Source: Aulosira sp. ZfuCHP01 | GTDB taxonomy: Bacteria; Cyanobacteriota; Cyanobacteriia; Cyanobacteriales; Nostocaceae | Assembly: GCA_034530575.1 (NCBI GenBank) | Contig: JAVRCU010000042.1 | Span: forward strand, 6,648-70,647 | Length of the DNA stretch: 64,000 bases | Reading direction: 5' to 3' | Part shown: one piece after another, positions 1-63,437 of the stretch | How the letters are laid out: each line of letters begins with the position of its first letter | Position numbering within the stretch: position 1 is the first letter of the stretch | Position numbers and translations under genes: made by a program | Notes under the pieces: generated by a model | The model's input: only the letters and a program-made list of their open reading frames with translations | Told to the model about the DNA's origin: nothing | The model's database searches: none

Positions 1-253
1 GTAGTTCCCCCCAACCTAACTCTTTGGCAATAATTGCCGGATATGAGAGTTGCGTATTAAATATAGCTCCACTTTGGAAACCTTGTGTAATTGAGTCTCC
101 CAGCGTTACCAGCCGATTTTTAGGAGTTCCCGTTTTGCTAACATTAACAGCAATGCCTAAGGTTGGGTCTGTAACAGGTTTGCGTGGTTGCACTGAGATA
201 ACCACATCATCTGGTGTTTTGGGATCTAATATAGAACTCGATACATTGGTCAT
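1..253 (-). CDS. SGNH/GDSL-family hydrolase, N-terminal part only; the gene runs off the window start
   Basis: Translating the minus strand from the ATG at 253-251 gives MTNVSSSILDPKTPDDVVISVQPRKPVTDPTLGIAVNVSKTGTPKNRLVTLGDSITQGFQSGAIFNTQLSYPAIIAKELGWGEL. The GDSxTxG block (LGDSITQG) is the SGNH hydrolase block I motif. The tracked plus-strand ORF 24..275 has no recognisable features and is probably spurious. Confidence 0.5.
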   Translation of the reverse strand, partial: MTNVSSSILDPKTPDDVVISVQPRKPVTDPTLGIAVNVSKTGTPKNRLVTLGDSITQGFQSGAIFNTQLSYPAIIAKELGWGEL

Positions 254-3058: not shown

Positions 3059-3643
3059 CTAGCCACGATTGCGTTCTAGTAGCAGCATCATCATTAAACT
3101 TAGCAGAACCTGTTCTTCTTCGCGATCGCTCACTTGATCTACAGCTTTAATAATAAATCTGCGAGAGAGAAAAGCCGGAATTTTCTCTAAACGCATGACA
3201 ACTGTGCCATCAGTTCGGCTAACCAGGTAGACTGGGTTGAACACATAACCAGTGAACATTCCCACAATTGGGATCTCTGCGAATAAAGCATCTGCAACTT
3301 TGATCCAAGGATTTTTCTCTTGAATGTTGAGATTGCTAGTATCACCATCAAATATGTCATAGCGCGCCCGCCAAAGCGATCGCAATCCCCGCCGTTTGAC
3401 TGCTCCAATCTCCCTACCATTGCTATCTGTGAAGTTGTAACGCGCCGAAAAGTCAATAATTCGGTCAGCTTTAATGTAATAGAGGGGACGGGTACGCTCT
3501 AAGTCAGCAAAGATGGTAATTGCTTCCTTAAGCTTGAATAGTTTCTGCTGGACATAAAAAACCAAATTACCTTGACTATCAACAATCGATATTTGCGGCG
3601 CTAATGCCCAAAATTTGAACGTAAGTTCTAAAGGGTACTGCAT
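3059..3643 (-). CDS. LURP-one-related / Tubby C-terminal-like (DUF567) protein
   Basis: This 194-aa protein has the hydrophobic beta-strand pattern and central hydrophobic helix typical of the DUF567 scramblase-like family. No catalytic motifs were seen. Confidence 0.5.
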   Translation of the reverse strand: MQYPLELTFKFWALAPQISIVDSQGNLVFYVQQKLFKLKEAITIFADLERTRPLYYIKADRIIDFSARYNFTDSNGREIGAVKRRGLRSLWRARYDIFDGDTSNLNIQEKNPWIKVADALFAEIPIVGMFTGYVFNPVYLVSRTDGTVVMRLEKIPAFLSRRFIIKAVDQVSDREEEQVLLSLMMMLLLERNRG

Positions 3644-11735: not shown

Positions 11736-12485
11736 ATGAAATTTCTCGGCATTGATTTAGGTTGGAAATCGCAACCAAGTGGACTATGCTGCTTAGAATT
11801 AATAGATGGAGAATTAGAGATTATTGATTTAGATCGTAAAGAAGCGATCGCAGATATTCTCACCTGGATCGATACTTGCATACACCCAGATGCACCAGCA
11901 ATCATCGCTGTAGATGCACCGACCCTCATCCCTAACGCTAGCGGGAGTCGCCTACCAGACAAACTCAGCCATAAACACTTTGGTAAATATCATGCTGGAT
12001 GCTACCCAGCTAATTTGGGTTTAGCCTTTGCCGAGCGCACCGTCAACTTTGGTTTAGAATTAGAATTTCGTGGTTTTGCCCACGCACCAACCATAAAACC
12101 CCAAACACTCGGCAGATATCAAATAGAAGTTTTTCCCCATCCAGCAATAGTTCATTTATTCAATTTAGAACGCATCCTCAAATACAAAAAAGGACGCTTG
12201 CGCGAGCGTCGCTTAGAATTAATCAGACTCTACAATTATATTGTTGATATCCTGCCCACCCTCCAACCACCTCTGCGTTCTCTGCGCCTTGGCGGTTCGT
12301 TTATCCCGGAAATTCCCAACACAGGTGCAGCACTCAAAGCCGTTGAAGATAGGCTAGATAGCCTGATTTGTGCTTATGTGGCTGCACACTGGTGGTATTG
12401 GGGCGAACAACGTAACTTAGTATTAGGCGATCGCACTACTGGTTACATTGTTATCCCCCAAAGAATTTTAGATTTTAGATTTTAG
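11736..12485 (+). CDS. DUF429 family protein (predicted RNase H-like fold)
   Basis: The N-terminal MKFLGIDLGWKSQP...IAVDAPT is the characteristic start of DUF429 proteins. Confidence 0.6.
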   Translation: MKFLGIDLGWKSQPSGLCCLELIDGELEIIDLDRKEAIADILTWIDTCIHPDAPAIIAVDAPTLIPNASGSRLPDKLSHKHFGKYHAGCYPANLGLAFAERTVNFGLELEFRGFAHAPTIKPQTLGRYQIEVFPHPAIVHLFNLERILKYKKGRLRERRLELIRLYNYIVDILPTLQPPLRSLRLGGSFIPEIPNTGAALKAVEDRLDSLICAYVAAHWWYWGEQRNLVLGDRTTGYIVIPQRILDFRF

Positions 12486-12522
12486 ATTTTGGATTACTAA
12501 TCTAAAATCCGTCTTGGAAAGT

Positions 12523-26753: not shown

Positions 26754-29700
26754 ATGATAAAAATTGGTTCGTTGGTACGTTCCCGAAATAACAGCTTGGG
26801 CGTAGGGAAGGTAATTAAGATATCTGATACTCAGGCAATAGTTGAGTATTTTTGCTCAGTTGGAAAACGTATAGAAAAAAGTTTACCTTTAAGTTCGCTA
26901 TATCGCTTCAAACTGGATTGTCAAACTCGATGCTATATTTGCCTGGAAAGTCAAGAAGCATGGCTGATTGGCAGAATTTACGAGTGGGATGAGGAACTTT
27001 ATCAGTATCTCGTTGATTTACCTGATAAAAAGACGATCGCAGTCAGCGAACAACAAATATACGTGCGTTGTAGTTTACCTCAACCAGACCCCATTGAGAC
27101 GCTGGCAATGAAGGGGCAAGAAACCCCCTACTTCCACGATAGGCGCTTTGCTTTTGTTAAATGCTTAATTGAACAACGGGCTGTCAGTCGGGGAATGACG
27201 GGATTAATTTCCGCTAATATTAAGCTTTATCCACATCAAGTTGAAGTTGTCCGTCGTGTACTCGAAGACCCGATTCAACGCTATCTACTGGCGGATGAAG
27301 TTGGACTAGGAAAAACCATCGAAGCTGGTACGATTGTTCGTCAATATTTATTGGATGAACCTTCTGGATATGTGGTAGTGCTAGTTCCGCAATATTTACT
27401 TCAACAATGGCAGCAGGAATTAGAAAATAAGTTTTACATCTCCCACTTTCCCAAACGGCTAGCAGTGCTTGCGGTTGAGAATCTTCATAAAATCAACCCA
27501 AAAGCGAAGATTGGCTTGCTAATTTTAGATGAAGCACACCACATTGCAGCAATGGCGACCTCTAGCGATGCAGCAATGCGCCAGCGTTTTGAGAGTTGCA
27601 AACATCTTGCCCATAAAAGCGATCGCCTGCTTCTACTTTCGGCTACCCCGGTTCTCAACCACGAGCAAGATTTTCTCGCAATGCTGCATCTGCTTGACCC
27701 AAAAACTTATCAACTTGATGACTTAGCAGGTTTTCGCGATCGGGTAGTCAAACGCCAAGATATTGGTCGAATTCTGCTGTCATTTCAAGAAGGCGCAAAC
27801 CTCTCCGTCCTGAAAACTAATCTCCAGCATCTCCGTAATCTGTTTGCTGAAGATGAGTATTTACTGAAATTGGCAGACAATCTAGAAAACAGTTTACAAG
27901 CAAAGGCTGACGATACCGTTGAAATTGTCAGGGCAATTCGTACCCATATTAGCGATACCTACAGACTTCACAGAAGGATGCTTCGCAATCGTCGTGCTTC
28001 TGTAGAAGATGTAATTTTTGACCGGAATATTACACCTAGAGCCGAGTACGATTTAGACGAGCGATCGCCTGACATTCACGAATTAATTGAGGCGTGGCGT
28101 AATGCGGCTCCTGATGAGAAACAATATCACCACATTTTTCTCTTGTTCTTCCGTGCTTCTGGTACTTGGTTGGGTATTTTTACACAAGTAATTCAAGCAC
28201 GTTTAAAGAGTGTCTCGCCTGCGGAATTAATTCGGGAATTTGGCGCTGATAGCCTTCGCATCCTCACTGAAACTCCTAAATTTGCTGGAGAAGCAGAGAT
28301 TTTGCAAAGCTTGCTGCGAATTATCGAACAGCCTTCAGAGGATGGCGATCGCCTGGAATTACTCAAGACAGTCATACTTTACCAACTCTGCGAACCTTTA
28401 AAATTACAATCCTTGAAATTCAACCTCCCGAAATTGCTTGCAGAGGTTCAACAACGGATTAAAAGACCGATCCCGGGAGACAGTTGGCCAAAAATTGTTG
28501 TATTTACCAGCTTTGTGCAAACTTGCGCCGAAATTGTCCGCTACTTGAGCGATCGTTTTGGTGAAGGGACTGTTGTCAGCCATCAAGTTGGACAAACTCC
28601 CTCTCAAGTAGAGAAGAACTTAAATCAATTTAAACAAGACCCCAAATGCTTTATTTTAGTTTGCGATTCTTCCGGCGAAGAAGGACGTAACTTACAATTT
28701 ATCAACAACATGATCTATTTTGACCTGCCTTGGTCGCCAAATCGTATAGAACACAGAATTGGTAGAATAGACCGGATTGGTCGTTCATTGAACGTTGAGT
28801 TAACAGTATTTGCTGGCGTAGACTTACCGGATAGTCTCCATGATGCCTGGTATCGCTTATTAAAAGAAGGGTTTAATATCTTTAAGCAATCCATTGCTAG
28901 TCTCCAGTTTTATGTTGAGGAAAAATTACCAGTATTAGCAGAAATCCTGTTTAAATCTGGTGCAAAGGGAATTTTGGAAAGTATCGAAATAATTCCCCAA
29001 GAAATTGAACAGGAACAAGTAAAAATTAGCGAACAAAACGCCTTAGATGAAATAGATGCCTTGGATGAAAGTGCTACCCAATATTTTCAAGTTTTAGATG
29101 ATTATGATGCCCGTCATCAAGAAATTCAAAAAATAACTGAAAATTGGATTTGTCAGGCATTGAACTTTAAAACCATCACTAATCCTAATTTCTCGACACT
29201 TAAGCGTTATAAACCTACCGAAAATACATTAATTCCAGCAGATGATTTGAGTAGTTATTTTGCAGATGTTTTAGAAGAATTTGGGACTTTTAACCGTGAG
29301 GTAGCCAATCAACAACCTGATGCAAAACTCTACCGTATTGGTGAAAAATTTGTAGAAGCATTATCATCTTATATCCATTGGGATGACCGGGGTAAAGCTT
29401 TTGCGATGTGGCGAGTTGAAGAAACTTGGAACGCAGGAGAAGGTGAAGAATGGTATGGTTTCCGATTTAATTACATTATTGAAACCAATTTAACAAATTA
29501 CCAAGGAAACAATCCCAAATCTAAAATTTTGCAAAGACTGGTCGATGGTTTATTCCCGCCAATTGTAGAAAGTGTATTTATTGATGCACGAAATGAACCA
29601 ATGTGTGCTGTTGAAGATGAAACACTTTTAAACATTCTGCACCGTCCTTATAAAGGCAAAGGGGGTAAATTCCGAGATTACAACTTAGCCAAAAGTCGTT

Positions 29701-30059
29701 TATCTATTCTTGATAACTTTATTGAGTCTAGCAATTGGTCAGAATTTTGCTATCAGGCGCATCGCACATCTTTGGAATTACTCAGTCAGCGTCCCGAATT
29801 TATTGGATTATGTGAAAACAGCGCCACCCGTGCTGAACAAAAATTAGGTAAGAGACTAGACCAATTACGCCTGCGTTTCAACCGACTTACTAACCAAGAG
29901 CGATTTTCCGCTCCGGTACTGGAGCAAGAACTTAATAACGAAACGGCATTAAATCAGGTAATTATTGATGGGATTCGTAATCCTACTATTCGCCTAGATT
30001 CTGTTGGTTTTATTATCGTTTCTGGGCAACATCCAGCTAAGTCTGAGGAGGATGATTGA
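26754..30059 (+). CDS. SNF2-family ATPase/helicase, RapA/HepA-like (N-terminal Tudor-like barrel, SNF2_N, Helicase_C), with a roughly 400-aa C-terminal extension
   Basis: Motif I is LLADEVGLGKTIEAG, motif II (DEAH) is LILDEAHH, and motif VI is HRIGRIDRIGR. The N-terminal SLGVGKV... barrel resembles the RapA N-terminal domain. Confidence 0.8.
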   Translation: MIKIGSLVRSRNNSLGVGKVIKISDTQAIVEYFCSVGKRIEKSLPLSSLYRFKLDCQTRCYICLESQEAWLIGRIYEWDEELYQYLVDLPDKKTIAVSEQQIYVRCSLPQPDPIETLAMKGQETPYFHDRRFAFVKCLIEQRAVSRGMTGLISANIKLYPHQVEVVRRVLEDPIQRYLLADEVGLGKTIEAGTIVRQYLLDEPSGYVVVLVPQYLLQQWQQELENKFYISHFPKRLAVLAVENLHKINPKAKIGLLILDEAHHIAAMATSSDAAMRQRFESCKHLAHKSDRLLLLSATPVLNHEQDFLAMLHLLDPKTYQLDDLAGFRDRVVKRQDIGRILLSFQEGANLSVLKTNLQHLRNLFAEDEYLLKLADNLENSLQAKADDTVEIVRAIRTHISDTYRLHRRMLRNRRASVEDVIFDRNITPRAEYDLDERSPDIHELIEAWRNAAPDEKQYHHIFLLFFRASGTWLGIFTQVIQARLKSVSPAELIREFGADSLRILTETPKFAGEAEILQSLLRIIEQPSEDGDRLELLKTVILYQLCEPLKLQSLKFNLPKLLAEVQQRIKRPIPGDSWPKIVVFTSFVQTCAEIVRYLSDRFGEGTVVSHQVGQTPSQVEKNLNQFKQDPKCFILVCDSSGEEGRNLQFINNMIYFDLPWSPNRIEHRIGRIDRIGRSLNVELTVFAGVDLPDSLHDAWYRLLKEGFNIFKQSIASLQFYVEEKLPVLAEILFKSGAKGILESIEIIPQEIEQEQVKISEQNALDEIDALDESATQYFQVLDDYDARHQEIQKITENWICQALNFKTITNPNFSTLKRYKPTENTLIPADDLSSYFADVLEEFGTFNREVANQQPDAKLYRIGEKFVEALSSYIHWDDRGKAFAMWRVEETWNAGEGEEWYGFRFNYIIETNLTNYQGNNPKSKILQRLVDGLFPPIVESVFIDARNEPMCAVEDETLLNILHRPYKGKGGKFRDYNLAKSRLSILDNFIESSNWSEFCYQAHRTSLELLSQRPEFIGLCENSATRAEQKLGKRLDQLRLRFNRLTNQERFSAPVLEQELNNETALNQVIIDGIRNPTIRLDSVGFIIVSGQHPAKSEEDD

Positions 30060-30163
30060 TGAATATCCCATTCTCATAACTGCGGAAAATTCTCAAAACG
30101 CTGAGGATATTTAGCCATGTTTTAAACGCTTGTCATCAACACTTATTAGTGGCACAGGTATGG

Positions 30164-30362
30164 CCATTGGTGTCAACTTAAGCCTAGATGTATACAGCGT
30201 AAGTCTTTGAGGTTATCTCTCTTAGCACCATAAACTTTCTATCCCCCCTAACCCCCCCTTAAAAAAGGGGGGAAAAGAATCAAAGTCCCCCTTTTTAAGG
30301 GGGATTTAGGGGGATCAAATATCTTTAGTAACAAAGCCTTTCACGTTAAGTTGACACCAATT
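30164..30362. mobile_element. MITE-like non-autonomous element (199 bp) with terminal inverted repeats and an 8-bp target-site duplication
   Basis: The TIRs are CCATTGGTGTCAACTTAAGC and GCTTAAGTTGACACCAATT. Direct repeats AGGTATGG flank the element at 30156-30163 and 30363-30370. Internally there are two CCCCCTTAAAAAAGGGGG palindromes. A second copy at 53221-53408 is about 85% identical. Confidence 0.6.
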
Positions 30363-30691
30363 AGGTATGGCAGGCTATCAAACAATTTACTTACGGATAA
30401 AAACCGATAATTTTGCGTTACTCTGTAGCACAATCATCTACTAGATTGATGCAGGGATTGTTATGCTGTTTCTTCCTCGATCTTCCCCGATTGCGCGATC
30501 GCAATCACAAATATTTACATAAATCTACTTTAATTAAATTCAAAATATCGAGACATTATTATACAAATAAGTTAGGATTGAGCAAAAATTTCCCATTAGA
30601 GTAAGGTTGCAGGAGCGCAGAGTCAAAATAATTATTTGAAGTTATATTTCTATATACAAAAATTTTAACCTTTAAAAACATTAATTAATTT

Positions 30692-44810: not shown

Positions 44811-45003
44811 TTTTCTCATACATAATAAATAAATCCTCTTAGGGGTTGTTTTAAAAGTGGTTAGCTGTGATTTTAGATACTAATTTATCCCCCCTACCCC
44901 CCTTAAAAAGGGGGAAAACTGAATCAAAATCCCCCTTAAAAAGGGGGATTTAGGGGGATCTAAAAGTATTTGATACATCATTAGGGACTTTTCAAACATC
45001 CTC

Positions 45004-46275
45004 TTAGATATCTTTCAACCTGGCATTCTTATCAAAATGCAAGTAATGTTTAATAATATGCTCTACGCTATTACCACAGCTATTAGCAAGTAGTTTTAAG
45101 TCAACTCCATGATTAGCTTGAATGCTGATAAAAGTGTGACGTGTAGAATAGGGTTTTAAATATTCTAGTTTTCTCTCTTGGGCTAATTTCTTTACTACCC
45201 CAGGATAGTGGTAGACTTTACCTCTGACCTCAACAGTATTGCCAGTCCAGATATCTGTAAGGGTATTACTTGAATATTGCTTGCCAGCGATAGTTCTAAA
45301 AACTAATTCATTTTCCTTTTTGCCGTTTGCATATAATCTTGTTAATAAATTAACTAACCTATTCATCCCTTGAATTTTAAATAGTCTTTCAGTATTATTA
45401 TTTGATTTTTTAGTAATACCAGCACTACTATCAAATGATTCTTTAAAAAATATCCAACCCTCCTCTAGTTGGATATTTTTCCACTTCAAAGCGAATACTT
45501 CACCATGTCTGCAACCAGTGAGAAACAGAAACTCAATTAAATCAGCACCATGTCTGATAGAGGCTTGCTCAGAATTACGGAATGATTCAACGATCAAATC
45601 TCTTTCTTGGATGTTATAAGCTCTATAATCTTCTAATTCTGAGATTTTTTGCGACTTTTTGGGTATATTGTAAGTTTTTTTGATTTCTATAAAATAATCT
45701 GCCGTTAATTGCTGATTACTAATAGCCCGTTGACACATATTACTCAGCAAACAAAATAGCTTTTTTATTTGTTGTAAGTTACTTTGCTTTAGTAATAAGT
45801 GCTGAATTAAGCTATTGGCAGTATCAAGATTTAATTCTAAGTCTAAAAATTCTTTAATTAGATTGTGGTAAACAATAAAATTTTTTTTATAGGTACTTTT
45901 TTGGATCTGCTTTGTTTGCAATTTCCAATCAACAAACTCATGCCATAATTGTCCTAATTTAGGTGGTTGTGGAGGATTGCTGAACTGGTTAATTGTTGTG
46001 AGTTGCTTAATTTCTAGATATTTAGCGAGTGTTGGATCGAATGAGCTACCATCTGTGCGATCGATATCAGCTTGTATCTGTGCTGCGATTTGATTTGCCC
46101 ATTGCAGATTTTCTGGGGTGTCTCTCCTCCCCAGTCCTTTATAAGCTTGTCGCTTGCTGTAGAACTTCTGGCTAATGCGAGTGCTGAACTGTAGCCTTAA
46201 ACTACCTTTATCTGAACCGACACGTATATCTGCTAATTTGATAGAATCCTTGCTACTCTTATGTTTTGAGTGCAT
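45004..46275 (-). CDS. Tyrosine-type site-specific recombinase / phage-type integrase
   Basis: The C-terminal catalytic region carries conserved Arg, His-x-x-Arg and Tyr residues (LTGCRHGEVFAL...HTFISIQANHGVDLKLLANSCGNSVEHIIKHYLHF). GC is low, in the low 30s percent. The gene is flanked by a palindrome-rich repeat (44880-44960). Confidence 0.8.
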   Translation of the reverse strand: MHSKHKSSKDSIKLADIRVGSDKGSLRLQFSTRISQKFYSKRQAYKGLGRRDTPENLQWANQIAAQIQADIDRTDGSSFDPTLAKYLEIKQLTTINQFSNPPQPPKLGQLWHEFVDWKLQTKQIQKSTYKKNFIVYHNLIKEFLDLELNLDTANSLIQHLLLKQSNLQQIKKLFCLLSNMCQRAISNQQLTADYFIEIKKTYNIPKKSQKISELEDYRAYNIQERDLIVESFRNSEQASIRHGADLIEFLFLTGCRHGEVFALKWKNIQLEEGWIFFKESFDSSAGITKKSNNNTERLFKIQGMNRLVNLLTRLYANGKKENELVFRTIAGKQYSSNTLTDIWTGNTVEVRGKVYHYPGVVKKLAQERKLEYLKPYSTRHTFISIQANHGVDLKLLANSCGNSVEHIIKHYLHFDKNARLKDI

Positions 46276-47535: not shown

Positions 47536-47748
47536 ATGTCTAATCAAATTACACTTCAGGTAAATGGAGAGAGCCATAGCTGTTCATCCCAAACTCCTTT
47601 ACCAGAATTACTCCAACAACTTGGTTTCAATCCCCGCTTAGTAGCAGTAGAGTATAATGGCGAGATTTTACACCGCCAATTTTGGAATGAAACAAAAGTG
47701 CAACAAGGCGATCGCTTGGAAGTTGTCACCATTGTTGGTGGTGGGTGA
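47536..47748 (+). CDS. thiS: Sulfur-carrier protein ThiS
   Basis: The 70-aa protein has the ubiquitin-like pattern (ITLQVNGE...LPELLQQLGF...VAVEYNGEILHR...GDRLEVVTIVGGG) and ends in Gly-Gly. Confidence 0.8.
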   Translation: MSNQITLQVNGESHSCSSQTPLPELLQQLGFNPRLVAVEYNGEILHRQFWNETKVQQGDRLEVVTIVGGG

Positions 47749-47873
47749 ATCAATTTTGGATTTTGGATTTTAGATTGGGAAATTTTCTAATGTCATTTGT
47801 CCTTTGCCATTTATTATTTCTCCCCGTCCCCGCGTCCCTTTGTCTCCCTTATCTTCCTTATCCCCCTACTCCC

Positions 47874-52017: not shown

Positions 52018-53162
52018 GTTTCAAACAACAATTACCCCGCAAGGGGATTGAAACTTTGAGATCCTTGATGGGATAACACAAGCTGTAGAGTTTCAAACAA
52101 CAATTACCCCGCAAGGGGATTGAAACATGCGATTATTACTGGAGTTTGTGAAACCGATTATTCAGGTTTCAAACAACAATTACCCCGCAAGGGGATTGAA
52201 ACAACCAATTATGACATTTAGCGAATTCACAGAAAAATGGTTTCAAACAACAATTACCCCGCAAGGGGATTGAAACATCAATATCTCATCCAAAAAATAG
52301 CGATCGCTGCCCAAAGTTTCAAACAACAATTACCCCGCAAGGGGATTGAAACATCGCTTTAAATCTTTAGATGCGCATATTCATCATGTGTTTCAAACAA
52401 CAATTACCCCGCAAGGGGATTGAAACATGCCGAAAAACAAAGAGCTTACAGGCAAAGAATAAGTTTCAAACAACAATTACCCCGCAAGGGGATTGAAACA
52501 AGAATAGTAATGCTTTGCTCCTTGATTCCAATCAATTAAGTTTCAAACAACAATTACCCCGCAAGGGGATTGAAACTCGCCAATAATGCGCTTTAATTCT
52601 ACTTCCACCGGTTTCAAACAACAATTACCCCGCAAGGGGATTGAAACTAGCAATTATAGCAACTAGTTTAGCTGGCGCAATCAAGTTTCAAACAACAATT
52701 ACCCCGCAAGGGGATTGAAACCTAAACCGCTACTAAAACCCTACTAAAAATCGACCCAAAGTTTCAAACAACAATTACCCCGCAAGGGGATTGAAACTGC
52801 TATATAATACTCTCGACGTAGCATTTACTGGAGTTTCAAACAACAATTACCCCGCAAGGGGATTGAAACGCGGCTAATACGTTTTTAGCTAGTAATGGCG
52901 TCACGTTTCAAACAACAATTACCCCGCAAGGGGATTGAAACTCTGGTGATGCTTGATTTCGCAGGTCAGCAGCGTTAATGTTTCAAACAACAACTACCCC
53001 GCAAGGGGATTGAAACCAGCTGATGTTAATGGAACCGCAGGGAGCGATTCGGTTTCAAACAAAAATTACCCCGCAAGGGGATTGAAACTTAGCAGGCGAT
53101 GAGGAGCTATTGAAACCAGTGATCAGTTTCAAACAACAATTACCCCGCAAGGGGATTGAAAC
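52018..53162 (+). CRISPR. CRISPR array of 16 direct repeats (37 bp) and 15 spacers (34-40 bp), with no cas genes in the window
   Basis: The repeat GTTTCAAACAACAATTACCCCGCAAGGGGATTGAAAC starts at 52018, 52090, 52166, 52240, 52316, 52390, 52463, 52540, 52611, 52685, 52761, 52833, 52905, 52980, 53052 and 53126. The repeat at 52980 carries CAACTACC and the one at 53052 carries CAAAAATT, so the variant repeats are at the 53-kb end (trailer). An AT-rich putative leader spans 51840-52017. The repeat has a CCCC-GCAA-GGGG hairpin followed by an ATTGAAAC 3' handle, typical of Cas6-processed class 1 (type I/III) repeats. Orientation is inferred from the leader and degenerate-end positions. Confidence 0.95.
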
Positions 53163-53220
53163 ATCAATATCCGTAACTTTAAATAGGAACAGTGGAAGTA
53201 ATAGAGGGTTTAGCAATGCT

Positions 53221-53408
53221 CACCTGTGTCAATTTAAGCGTAGATGCATACAGCGTAAGTCTTTGAGGTTCTGTCTCTTAGCACCATAAACTTTTGATCC
53301 CCCTTAAAAAAGGGGGAATTATATTAGAATCTTAGCCCCCTTTTTAAGGGGGTTGGGGGATCAAATATCCTGATTGACAAAGCCTTTCACGTTAATTTGA
53401 CACGTATG
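53221..53408. mobile_element. MITE-like element, second copy, flanked by a 9-bp target-site duplication
   Basis: The TIRs are CACCTGTGTCAATTTAAGC and GTTAATTTGACACGTATG. Direct repeats AGCAATGCT sit at 53212-53220 and 53409-53417. Internally it is about 85% identical to the copy at 30164-30362. It lies between CRISPR repeat 16 and the degenerate repeat remnants. Confidence 0.6.
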
Positions 53409-53450
53409 AGCAATGCTAAACCCCTACAAAAAATCTATCTCTATCATGAT

Positions 53451-53557
53451 TTTCGTGAATTGGTATTACCCCGCAAGGAGACTGAAACAACTCAGCGAAT
53501 GTTTTCTCGAATCCAGCAGCAAAACTTATCCCGCAAGGGGACAAATATATCAATCGC
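53451..53557 (+). repeat. Two degenerate CRISPR repeat remnants (decayed trailer end of the array)
   Basis: The first is TTTCGTGAATTGGTATTACCCCGCAAGGAGACTGAAAC (53451-53488), which keeps ATTACCCCGCAAGG-GA-TGAAAC. After a 36-nt spacer-length gap comes CTTATCCCGCAAGGGGAC (around 53525), which keeps the hairpin core. Confidence 0.5.
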
Positions 53558-55933: not shown

Positions 55934-56470
55934 ATGCCAGACCTTTACGTTTCTTGGTCAGATTATCACCAAAAAATTGAACAACTGGCTGCTCAGATTT
56001 ATCAATCGGGTTGGGAATTTAACCAGATTGTCTGTCTTGCCAGAGGCGGACTGCGAGTAGGAGATATTTTATCCCGTATATACCAGCAACCGCTGGCAAT
56101 TTTAGCAACATCATCTTACAGTGGACCAGGCAAGCAAGAAAGGGGTTCGTTAACCTTTTCTCGCCATTTAACCATGACCACTGAAACTTTAGGTTCCCAG
56201 GTTCTATTAGTCGATGACCTTGTAGATTCTGGAGTCACACTCAAAGAGACTATCCCTTGGCTACAGCAAAAGCCTGAGTTTGCGATCGCCGAAATTCGTA
56301 CTGCTGTACTTTGGTATAAAGCTTGCTCAGTTATAGAACCTGATTACTATGTTGACTACCTCTCAGATAACCCCTGGATTCACCAACCCTTTGAACCCTA
56401 TGAATACACTAACCCCGCTGAACTAGCAGCAAAGTTTAGCCAACACGGTGAAGCATCACCCGTCCTATGA
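55934..56470 (+). CDS. Phosphoribosyltransferase-domain protein (type I PRT, Xpt/Gpt-like)
   Basis: The PRPP-binding motif is VLLVDDLVDSGVTL. The preceding CLARGGLRVGDIL fits the PRT hood/loop. Confidence 0.7.
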   Translation: MPDLYVSWSDYHQKIEQLAAQIYQSGWEFNQIVCLARGGLRVGDILSRIYQQPLAILATSSYSGPGKQERGSLTFSRHLTMTTETLGSQVLLVDDLVDSGVTLKETIPWLQQKPEFAIAEIRTAVLWYKACSVIEPDYYVDYLSDNPWIHQPFEPYEYTNPAELAAKFSQHGEASPVL

Positions 56471-56572
56471 GTCAATTTTGGATTTTGGATTTTGGATTGG
56501 GAAATTCTCCAATGTCATTTGTCAAAAGCCAGGAATTTTCCCCCAATGCCCAATGCCCCATGCCCAATGCCC

Positions 56573-62995: not shown

Positions 62996-63437
62996 AAGGA
63001 ACCATAGATGAACACAGATAAACACCGATATTTATCTGTGGTTTGATATCAAAAACATCCACTGATATAATCCCTCTTTTGTTACTTTCAGCAGAGAATA
63101 ATCCCTAAGTCTTATTATTGGGTTATTTATCAACAAGCTAAGTTAAATGAGAAAATGATCATGCGATCGCTCAATTGATGATTTTGTCTAAGGTTCAGAT
63201 TGGGTAGAGTATTATTCTCTCCCCGTAGTGATAAAAGAGGGATAATACCAATTCATGAAAATCCTGATACAGATAGATTTTTCGTAGAGGTTTAGCAATG
63301 CTAAACCCTCTACCCACGTATTTGTATCATTATTAAACTGAAATGGTATAAGAGGATGTTTTAAAAGTCTTTTAAAAAGAGTAAGGGCACAACAATGTTG
63401 CACCCCCACCATGTTCTGTATTCAAAAAAAACCGCTA

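Follow-up and report, generated by a model that had tools for sequence, protein, structure and literature searches.

In the 64,000-nucleotide stretch of contig JAVRCU010000042.1 of the cyanobacterium Aulosira sp. [quoted passage not shown] Both are true non-coding MITEs that were inserted by a transposase. Our overall reading, to which we assign a probability of roughly 0.8, is that they are cut-and-paste elements homing to the dyads of palindromes that resemble repetitive extragenic palindromes (REPs), that they would have been moved by an IS4/IS231-like transposase provided in trans, and that the twin-hairpin core in their centre would be an interchangeable cassette. Insertion of a non-autonomous element by a transposase had already been proposed in the preliminary description of this DNA and is upheld here because further copies exist, because the 9-bp target-site duplications (TSDs) differ from copy to copy, and because removal of the element in silico restores co-linearity with unoccupied sites.

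Anatomy and Distribution of the fam1 Family

Two copies of about 190 bp with about 85% identity had originally been reported. Both were recovered, with lengths of 198 and 188 bp, and the identity given is fair for the wings only: the ungapped wings of copies A and B are 84-90% identical, whereas the global identity is 79.8%, with 20 gap columns that are nearly all central. The terminal inverted repeats said to be shared by the two copies are indeed present; those of copy A (ATTGGTGTCAACTTAA) are perfect over 16 nt and those of copy B (GTGTCAAWTTAA) contain one mismatch, CACCTGTGTCAATTTAAGC standing opposite CATACGTGTCAAATTAACG. The ends have 5'-CA tips and follow the consensus CATTGGTGTCAACTTAAGC and its reverse complement, which is kept in 15 aligned copies. 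Each copy is flanked by a perfect direct repeat of its own sequence; these repeats had been put at 8-9 bp, but their length is 9 bp in both copies. No open reading frame (ORF) of at least 80 amino acids overlaps copy A or B, and in size and non-coding content both are typical of MITEs.

Further copies, for which a search had been suggested, were sought with an 18-mer of the fam1 left wing in a collection that holds a single genome for each species. The matches comprise four full copies in Aulosira sp. ZfuVER01, one copy in Aulosira sp. DedQUE10 that is cut by the end of the locus, one chimera in Tolypothrix sp. FACHB-123 and, as the only remaining match, one in a Pseudomonas that is due to chance. 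The four copies of Aulosira sp. ZfuVER01 are 91-94% identical to copy A, and three of them are 100% identical to each other (197 bp), although they are found on different contigs at unrelated loci and have different TSDs (AGCATTGCT, AGCACTGCT and GGAAACACC). Recent transposition is recognised by just this pattern, in which copies without a single difference occupy unrelated sites and each has a duplication of its own, and from it we infer that fam1 has recently been active. A BLAST search of PLSDB plasmids with the specific wings of fam1 gave no match beyond chance, and in the collections searched the narrow family is confined to Aulosira and Tolypothrix.

The ends have a much wider distribution than the wings. 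Elements of 180-210 bp bounded by CATTGGTGTCAACTTAAGC, with the same core and other subterminal sequences, occur in many metagenome contigs (the fam1-superfamily), and fam1-type ends also surround other interiors, i.e., in a plasmid of Tolypothrix PCC 7601 (195 bp, with different hairpins) and in plasmids of Nostoc sp. C052 (303 and 486 bp). The inverted repeats define a wider MITE superfamily in plasmids of Nostocales and in metagenomes. The following characteristics of a MITE were encountered in fam1: the size, the inverted repeats, TSDs of constant length that differ by copy, dispersed copies, and paralogous filled and empty sites.

Insertion Sites of fam1

A comparison of insertion-site preferences had also been suggested; 18 insertions were compiled for their TSDs and 17 reconstructed empty sites were scored for palindromy (loci retrieved from outside the window carry the prefix L). 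The TSDs are perfect 9-mers in 11 of the 18 insertions (A, B, L004, L007, L008, L009, L052, L055, L083, L167, and L169), and no more than two mismatches are present in 15. The consensus of the duplicated 9-mers, RGCANTGCY, is symmetric. In 15 of the 18 cases the left arm contains a (G)TAGGG-like tag within 15 nt upstream of the TSD, and the right arm often ends with CCCTAC. The target sequences read GTAGGGGCAYGGCA-N-TGCCRTGCCCCTAC; examples are GTAGGGACACGGCA-C-TGCCGTGTCCCTAC (L055) and GTAGGGGCATGGCA-A-TGCCATGCCCC (L167). When centred on the middle base of the 9-mer, at least 9 out of 14 possible pairs are complementary in 7 of the 17 sites, compared to 0.45% of random positions in the same loci.

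These data point to a strong preference of fam1 for insertion at the dyad of GTAG...CTAC REP-like palindromes. Such a specific preference is a better description of its behaviour than the initial suggestion that the element targets, or is tolerated in, accessory DNA. The targets resemble the GTAG-tagged REPs of Anabaena and Nostoc, although they were set beside these by description alone (PMC3733652). As outlined by Di Nocera et al. (2013), GTAG-tagged REPs are short stem-loops in which a GTAG at one end stays unpaired, and the families GTAG-12, -15, and -16 are cyanobacterial (PMC3733652).

The Twin-hairpin Core as an Exchangeable Cassette

The twin palindromes in the centre of fam1 were initially thought to occur a third time in the window, at 44.9 kb, as a core-only relative. 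This locus is actually a complete MITE of another family, fam2, with its own inverted repeats of the GAGGATGTTTGAAAAGT type and a TTA duplication, which has the core alone in common with copies A and B (85% identity over 67 nt). The flanking 3 nt are identical in 25 of 28 fam2 copies and are all of the form TNA (TTA, TAA, TGA, or TCA). It is by this 3-bp TNA duplication alone that we take fam2 to be akin to the IS5 / PIF-Harbinger-type MITEs; the inverted repeats of fam2 are approximately 17-18 bp long. The fam2 element of the window is inserted exactly at the TAA stop codon of the adjoining integrase ORF, its right TTA duplication (45004-45006) being that stop on the minus strand.

The core of approximately 75 bp (GATCCCCCCTARCCCCCCTTAANAAGGGGGG...TCAAAGTCCCCCTTNTTAAGGGGGATTTAGGGGGATC) consists of halves that are inverted repeats of each other, so that a pair of hairpins and a single long hairpin are alternative folds. 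With at most three mismatches, hairpins of the CCCCCTTAAAAAGGGGG type give 13 overlapping matches in the 64 kb, which represent six hairpins at three loci, whereas only 0.1 matches are expected by chance. Outside the window the core alone matches 19 plasmids, all cyanobacterial and from 10 genera (Nostoc, Anabaena, Aulosira, Pseudanabaena, Kovacikia, Leptolyngbya, Allocoleopsis, Oscillatoria, Synechocystis, and Cyanobacterium). A 20-mer of the core was found in at least 120 metagenome stretches and had no match in viral contigs.

Among 107 usable contexts of the core, 33 are fam2, 20 belong to the fam1-superfamily, seven to a shell that we designate famX, and the rest to three small clusters and 40 singletons. 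The famX shell is characterized by the inverted repeat CAATACGGTTCACTTAAG, a length of 137 bp and 10-bp duplications. Another shell (ATTAGACCTCTTGC...GCAAGAGGTCTAAT) contains single hairpin units followed by ATTTAGGGGGATC, the unit is tandemly repeated at L023, L037, L075, and L091, and the chimera of Tolypothrix sp. FACHB-123 (L005) combines a fam1 left wing and the core with a fam2 right wing. Judged from its contexts, the core is an exchangeable cassette, which six or more recurrent MITE shells from different cyanobacterial orders contain, and not a marker of fam1. Its spread is most likely brought about by recombination or template switching through the palindrome, which offers the simplest explanation.

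Alternatively, the twin-hairpin core could be mobile itself, as a very small element comparable to the small dispersed repeats (SDRs) or REPINs, that inserts at the centre of palindromic hosts, in which case the shells would be its hosts and fam1 one host among many. We regard this as improbable. Such a spread would need an enzyme or mechanism other than transposition directed by inverted repeats, for example hairpin-templated copy-choice or another enzyme. Mobility of the core would account for the recurrence of one cassette in six or more recurrent shells and in 40 singletons, for its presence in shells whose TSDs measure 3, 9 and 10 bp, and for shells that can hold other cassettes or none of this type (L167, L169); the single hairpin units with ATTTAGGGGGATC in the ATTAGACCTCTTGC...GCAAGAGGTCTAAT shell, the tandem arrays of the unit and the mutually inverted halves, reminiscent of REPINs, are also in its favour. 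However, shells that differ solely by the presence or absence of the cassette were not found, and hence neither an insertion junction nor a duplication made by the cassette could be defined. For any MITE, moreover, the centre and the palindrome's apex trivially coincide. Furthermore, the core is devoid of the GTAG or CGTC tag of RAYT-linked REPs (PMC3733652), and the chimera L005 is explained more simply by recombination through the core. The evidence for movement of copies A and B as complete units of 190 bp is not called into question by a mobile core. Exchange of the cassette between shells thus continues to be preferred over its independent mobility.

Some further peculiarities of the core and its shells were observed. 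In the metagenome loci L080, L111, and L113 the 10-bp duplications of famX are situated in AT-rich sites, and L103 contains two adjacent famX copies with swapped flanks, which suggests recombination between copies. The loop of the first hairpin reads TTAAAAAA in copy A and L004 and TTTTTTAA in L007-L009, and that of the second hairpin reads TTTTTAA in copies A and B and TTAAAAA in L004 and L007-L009. Such loop flips make up four of the seven differences between L004 and L007. In these near-identical copies they look like small inversions mediated by the stems.

The Transposase

The general mechanism of fam1 movement is very probably cut-and-paste transposition by a DDE enzyme with a 9-bp stagger. 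In the scheme that we propose, a DDE transposase supplied in trans would recognise the CA-tipped ends of approximately 19 bp (CATTGGTGTCAACTTAAGC) and make cuts staggered by 9 bp, the repair of which would yield the 9-bp duplication. The enzyme would favour the dyad of GTAG...CTAC REP-like palindromes, with a 9-mer of the form RGCANTGCY, and fam1 would thereby land at the apex of fam3, a second palindromic MITE (see below), including the fam3 copy in the trailer of a CRISPR array. The G5/C5 twin-hairpin core would pass between shells of different transposition chemistries by recombination or template switching.

With regard to the family of this enzyme, we lean somewhat beyond even odds toward an IS4-family transposase with IS231-like end recognition, because of the CA tips, a duplication of about one helical turn and the match to the IS231 signature. 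The ends of the IS231 subgroup have the signature CAT-------AA--TAA (PMC2266710), which is matched 8/8 by the fam1 consensus and right ends and 7/8 by the left ends of Aulosira (CAC...). The end of IS231C and those of fam1 share 13 of 20 bases, among them CAT and, in register at positions 9-18, the 10-nt block TCAACTTAAG. A total of 752 plasmids, almost all from Bacillus, contain the IS231C 20-mer end itself (CATGCCCATCAACTTAAGAA), at 3316 places altogether; in B. thuringiensis pBMB400 this 20-mer bounds an element of 1655 bp that encodes an 'IS4-like element IS231C family transposase'. The IS4 family makes duplications of about 9-12 bp, the IS231 subgroup of 10-12 bp and IS4Sa of 8-10 bp (PMC2266710). 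The 9-bp duplication of fam1 fits the IS4 family and its IS4Sa, IS10, and IS50 subgroups, and it falls outside the range quoted for the IS231 subgroup.

Several observations weigh against our overall reading. No autonomous element with fam1 ends, the partner for which a search had been proposed at the outset, emerged from the fetched loci (about 1 Mb), the PLSDB plasmids or the viral contigs. When plasmids were searched with the IS231C transposase (tblastn), no cyanobacterial genus was among the ten genera with most matches, and IS231 has been reported almost only from the Bacillus cereus group, with duplications of 10-12 bp (PMC2266710). The target of copy A (TTAGTGGCAC, followed by the duplicated AGGTATGGC and by AGGCTATC) resembles a REP in degenerate form only, 5 of 14 pairs being palindromic. 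Among the 18 TSDs there are seven imperfect ones, which belong to older copies. Finally, an orthologous empty site for copy A was not obtained, the nearest relative examined, Nostoc sp. T09, being without the whole SNF2-MITE segment.

The searches for a source of the transposase gave the following results. In all fetched loci, a scan for pairs of ends at insertion-sequence spacing yielded one spurious pair only, inside a viral coding region, and their 382 ORFs contained neither the Y(2)R(3)E(6)K motif of the single-ORF DDE transposases of the IS4 family nor multi-copy ORFs. BLAST searches of PLSDB with the left wing of fam1 and the wings of the superfamily retrieved chance matches or further MITEs only. 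The 15-mer of the end had 26 isolated matches in viral contigs; we read these as chance, the inverted-pair scan having flagged one of them, inside a coding ORF. Within the initial 50 kb of the plasmid of Tolypothrix PCC 7601, an IS701 transposase is the only one. In cyanobacterial terminology a MITE is of 'type II' if its own genome is without an insertion sequence whose inverted repeats match (PMC3184786; PMC3542288), and so far fam1 is such a 'type II' MITE.

It is also conceivable, though in our view unlikely, that fam1 is a MITE whose transposase belongs to a family other than IS4, e.g., ISAs1, IS256, or IS1, which make duplications of 8-10 bp. Duplications of 9 bp occur outside the IS4 family too, which counts for this possibility, as do the missing autonomous partner and the concentration of IS231-type transposases, with their longer duplications, in the Bacillus cereus group. 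The 5'-CA tips combined with the 8/8 fit to the IS231 end signature argue against it, and so does the 10-nt block that is identical, in register, to real IS231C ends. In addition, symmetric target preferences have been documented for IS231 and for IS4/IS4Sa members such as ISRm22 (PMC2266710). An IS4-family enzyme with IS231-like end recognition is the assignment that we slightly prefer.

Nesting of fam1 in fam3

Copy B is located within fam3, a MITE with the ends ATACCAWTTCAC...GTGAATTGGTAT and the apex GAGGGTTTAGCA-N-TGCTAAACCCCTAC, and this fam3 copy takes the place of the first 13 nt of a CRISPR repeat. The structure at 53.2 kb consists of three levels, i.e., the CRISPR trailer contains fam3 and fam3 contains fam1. 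Like copy B, three of the copies of Aulosira sp. ZfuVER01 (L004, L007, and L008) are situated at a fam3 apex, and a preference for palindrome dyads would lead to this repeated nesting of fam1 at the apex of another palindromic MITE. Unoccupied fam3 copies are also available: one in the window, in which the 9-mer that would be duplicated is AGCATTGCT (63294-63302), and two in Nostoc plasmids. When the MITE and one TSD are deleted in silico from copy B, L004, L007, and L008, the resulting sequences are co-linear with these unoccupied copies. A fam3 copy of Nostoc sp. C052 contains a 486-bp element with fam1-type ends at the same apex position. Next to the unoccupied fam3 copy of the window, and abutting it, lies a solo inverted repeat of the fam2 type (AGAGGATGTTTTAAAAGT, one mismatch; 63351-63368) that lacks a partner in its vicinity and may represent a remnant or an insertion that was truncated.

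The preliminary description had pointed out that the flanking direct repeats could turn out to be part of a longer conserved sequence rather than TSDs. For copy B this is half true, as its flanks do belong to fam3, but its 9-mers are still true TSDs that co-vary by copy. Carried further, this thought would imply that copies B, L004, L007, and L008 go back to one fam1 insertion into fam3, that the composite was then spread by the fam3 transposase and that the 9-mers are conserved sequence, a history that would fit the observation that four of the six full fam1 copies in the window genome and Aulosira sp. ZfuVER01 have the same fam3 context and the same position. We consider it very improbable. 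The 9-mers match within a copy and differ between copies (AGCAATGCT, AACAATGCT, AGCATTGCT, and AGCACTGCT), at the apex-centre base or at position 2, and because of this co-variation inheritance would require paired parallel changes. The variable base is the base in the centre of the loop, which also varies in empty fam3 copies; the identical MITEs L007 and L008 reside in clearly diverged fam3 arms; and copies outside fam3 (A, L009, L052, L055, and L167) have 9-bp TSDs of their own. The element with the same ends at the equivalent apex position in Nostoc sp. C052 argues in the same direction. The data favour independent insertions for the fam3-borne copies.

Host Function and Other Interpretations

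The hairpins could have been conserved for a function in the host, as terminator, attenuator or structured RNA, rather than for mobility, but this has hardly any likelihood: the fold is far more stable than that of shuffled controls (z = -6.6 for DNA and -6.1 for RNA), which is expected of any palindromic MITE; there is one weak terminator-like site (hairpin 2, minus strand, two overlapping scan matches), while the hairpins lack a U-tract on the coding strand; and, although copy A starts 105 nt past the SNF2 stop codon, the contexts of the element are heterogeneous (intergenic, CRISPR trailer, inside other repeats) and its loops invert freely between near-identical copies. No Rfam family reached the gathering threshold in the whole window, the sub-threshold matches being generic hairpin matches to eukaryotic microRNA precursor models, and a run with an E-value threshold on 30100-30420 revealed nothing meaningful.

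The terminator interpretation was rejected on the absence of U-tracts from the sense strand. An IS200/IS605-derived PATE, which has subterminal hairpins and neither inverted repeats nor a TSD, was rejected since fam1 has clear inverted repeats and 9-bp TSDs. A REPIN/RAYT origin of the core was not adopted either: it possesses the inverted halves and lacks the GTAG/CGTC tag.

Comparison With Known Systems

In the inverted ends of Tn4430, the sites preferred by IS231A have the form GGG(N)5CCC, and insertion specificity is one of several traits in which the IS231/MIC231 elements (IS4 family) of the Bacillus cereus group can be compared with fam1. Common to both are CA(T)-tipped ends of approximately 20 bp, the block TCAACTTAAG and a duplication of about one helical turn. 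Documented insertion specificity is a known property of IS231 (PMC2266710). The IS231 type has a modular design, in which variable cassettes are enclosed by constant ends (De Palmenaer et al., 2004, as cited in PMC2266710), and this design is shared by fam1. However, fam1 occurs in Cyanobacteria instead of Bacillota, makes duplications of 9 instead of 10-12 bp, is only about 190 bp long and contains hairpins instead of genes, and no IS231-like transposase was found alongside it, the ten top plasmid genera including none that is cyanobacterial.

Insertion sequences that target REP palindromes are known, i.e., IS1397/ISKpn1 and others, as listed by Tobes and Pareja (2006), and ISRm22 of IS4Sa (PMC3116915; PMC2266710). 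Like fam1, these occupy a fixed position within short extragenic palindromes, which in the case of fam1 is the GTAG...CTAC dyad. Unlike these, fam1 is a MITE without a transposase of its own, and one of its favoured targets is the apex of another MITE.

Among the repeats of Nostocales, fam1 is like Nezha and the type I and II MITEs (Lin et al., 2011) in being small, structured and multi-copy, with inverted repeats and TSDs. Nezha, with which fam1 was compared by description only, is reported to measure 130-170 bp and to have the inverted and direct repeats of ISNpu3 (Zhou et al., 2008; PMC3184786). In the literature text searched, we found no published name or sequence that matches the ends or the core of fam1. 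The core resembles the SDRs of Nostoc punctiforme, which Elhai and co-workers reportedly described in 2008, and the REPINs, said to have been described by Bertels and Rainey in 2011, in that very short palindromic units are nested in other repeats. The core, which was set beside the SDRs by description, is a doublet of inverted, hairpin-bearing halves like a REPIN. It differs from the REPINs by the absence of a GTAG or CGTC tag.

Genomic Setting

The positions first assigned to the three loci were accurate: copy A lies between the SNF2 and MVP (major vault protein) genes, copy B in the CRISPR trailer, and the 44.9-kb locus adjoins the integrase gene (Table 1). Copy B is placed after the 16th CRISPR repeat and before two degenerate repeats. 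The genes that flank the CRISPR array (52018-53545) are not cas genes but DUF1517 upstream and PPIase and an MFS transporter downstream.

TABLE 1. Features of the window and their coordinates (for the loop inversions, positions within the element are given).
Feature	Position	Strand	Remarks
MITE copy A (fam1, 198 bp)	30165-30362	+	between SNF2 helicase gene and MVP gene
Left terminal inverted repeat of copy A, CATTGGTGTCAACTTAAGC	30165-30183	+	
Right terminal inverted repeat of copy A (reverse complement AATTGGTGTCAACTTAACG)	30344-30362	-	
Left 9-bp TSD of copy A, AGGTATGGC	30156-30164	+	identical to 30363-30371
Right 9-bp TSD of copy A, AGGTATGGC	30363-30371	+	
Twin-hairpin core cassette of copy A, ATCCCCCC...GGGGGATC	30241-30316		hairpin 1 at 30252-30272, hairpin 2 at 30287-30303
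MITE copy B (188 bp, diverged fam1 member)	53221-53408	+	hairpins at 53299-53316 and 53336-53352
Left 9-bp TSD of copy B, AGCAATGCT	53212-53220	+	near-palindromic
Right 9-bp TSD of copy B, AGCAATGCT	53409-53417	+	
Hairpins of L004, L007, L008, L009 concerned by the loop inversions	element positions 88-108 and 122-138		
fam3, host element of copy B (palindromic MITE of approximately 105 bp)	53167-53466 (left limit approximate)	+	split at apex by copy B
Unoccupied fam3 copy	63245-63349	-	target palindrome at 63284-63310
Complete MITE fam2 (162 bp), GAGGATGTTTGAAAAGT-type inverted repeats	44842-45003	+	twin-hairpin core at 44887-44960
3-bp TSD of fam2, TTA	44839-44841 and 45004-45006		
Tyrosine integrase ORF	45004-46275	-	
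SNF2-family helicase gene	26754-30059		
Major-vault-protein homologue	30692-33316		Vault repeats and MVP shoulder domain, full length
CRISPR array, 16 repeats of GTTTCAAACAACAATTACCCCGCAAGGGGATTGAAAC	52018-53162	+	
Degenerate CRISPR repeats past the nested MITEs	53465-53488 and about 53520-53545		

The MVP homologue has 2553 homologues at E <= 1e-50, mainly cyanobacterial and usually annotated as 'colicin uptake protein', the closest being that of Nostoc sp. T09 (94% identity). The segment 26205-30630, with the SNF2 gene and MITE A, is absent from the syntenic GNAT-MVP interval of Nostoc sp. T09 (L163, 3940-4437), which instead contains a tandem array with a unit of approximately 21 nt (GGCAATTGTAGTCTC.GAAAT). 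Three Logan contigs from three sequencing runs (L159, L160, and L161) begin inside MITE A, at the counterpart of window positions 30332-30342, and such starts of short-read contigs indicate that the repeat breaks assemblies.

Elsewhere in the window, a tandem duplication of approximately 1 kb (33429-35403, 73-79% identity) corresponds to two adjacent aldo/keto-reductase genes (Pfam). Runs of heptamer repeats (TTTTGGA / TTTTAGA) are present at 12458-12513, 47746-47801, and 56468-56523, with a conserved tail in two of the three loci, and resemble the STRR-type repeats of cyanobacteria.

Implications

MITEs, REP-targeting insertion sequences and nested repeats are already established, and in this respect fam1 is fairly ordinary mobile DNA that does not overturn the current understanding of MITEs. 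What this study adds is the precise anatomy of the element, a strong preference for REP dyads that would explain its nesting, and the recognition that its 'twin palindromes' are a promiscuous cassette. The locus of copy B is a case of layered mobile DNA, in which a MITE with IS231-like ends sits in a REP dyad, nested in a MITE that is itself in a CRISPR array, and a conserved hairpin cassette is exchanged between numerous MITE families of cyanobacteria. In Aulosira and Nostoc the repeats interrupt short-read assemblies, and they may be mistaken for structured RNAs or for markers of a family.

Should the cognate transposase be found, the range of IS231-type elements would no longer end at the Bacillus cereus group, and a DDE enzyme that is site-specific and targets palindromes would become available. 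A more far-reaching view, which we hold to be doubtful, is that the cassette spreads independently, in different cyanobacterial orders, between unrelated shells whose chemistries give 3-, 9- and 10-bp duplications and that the shell represents an IS231-type lineage of the IS4 family outside the Bacillota, specialised on REP dyads. If the cassette of approximately 75 bp were indeed independently mobile, cyanobacterial MITEs would be modular parasites of two layers.

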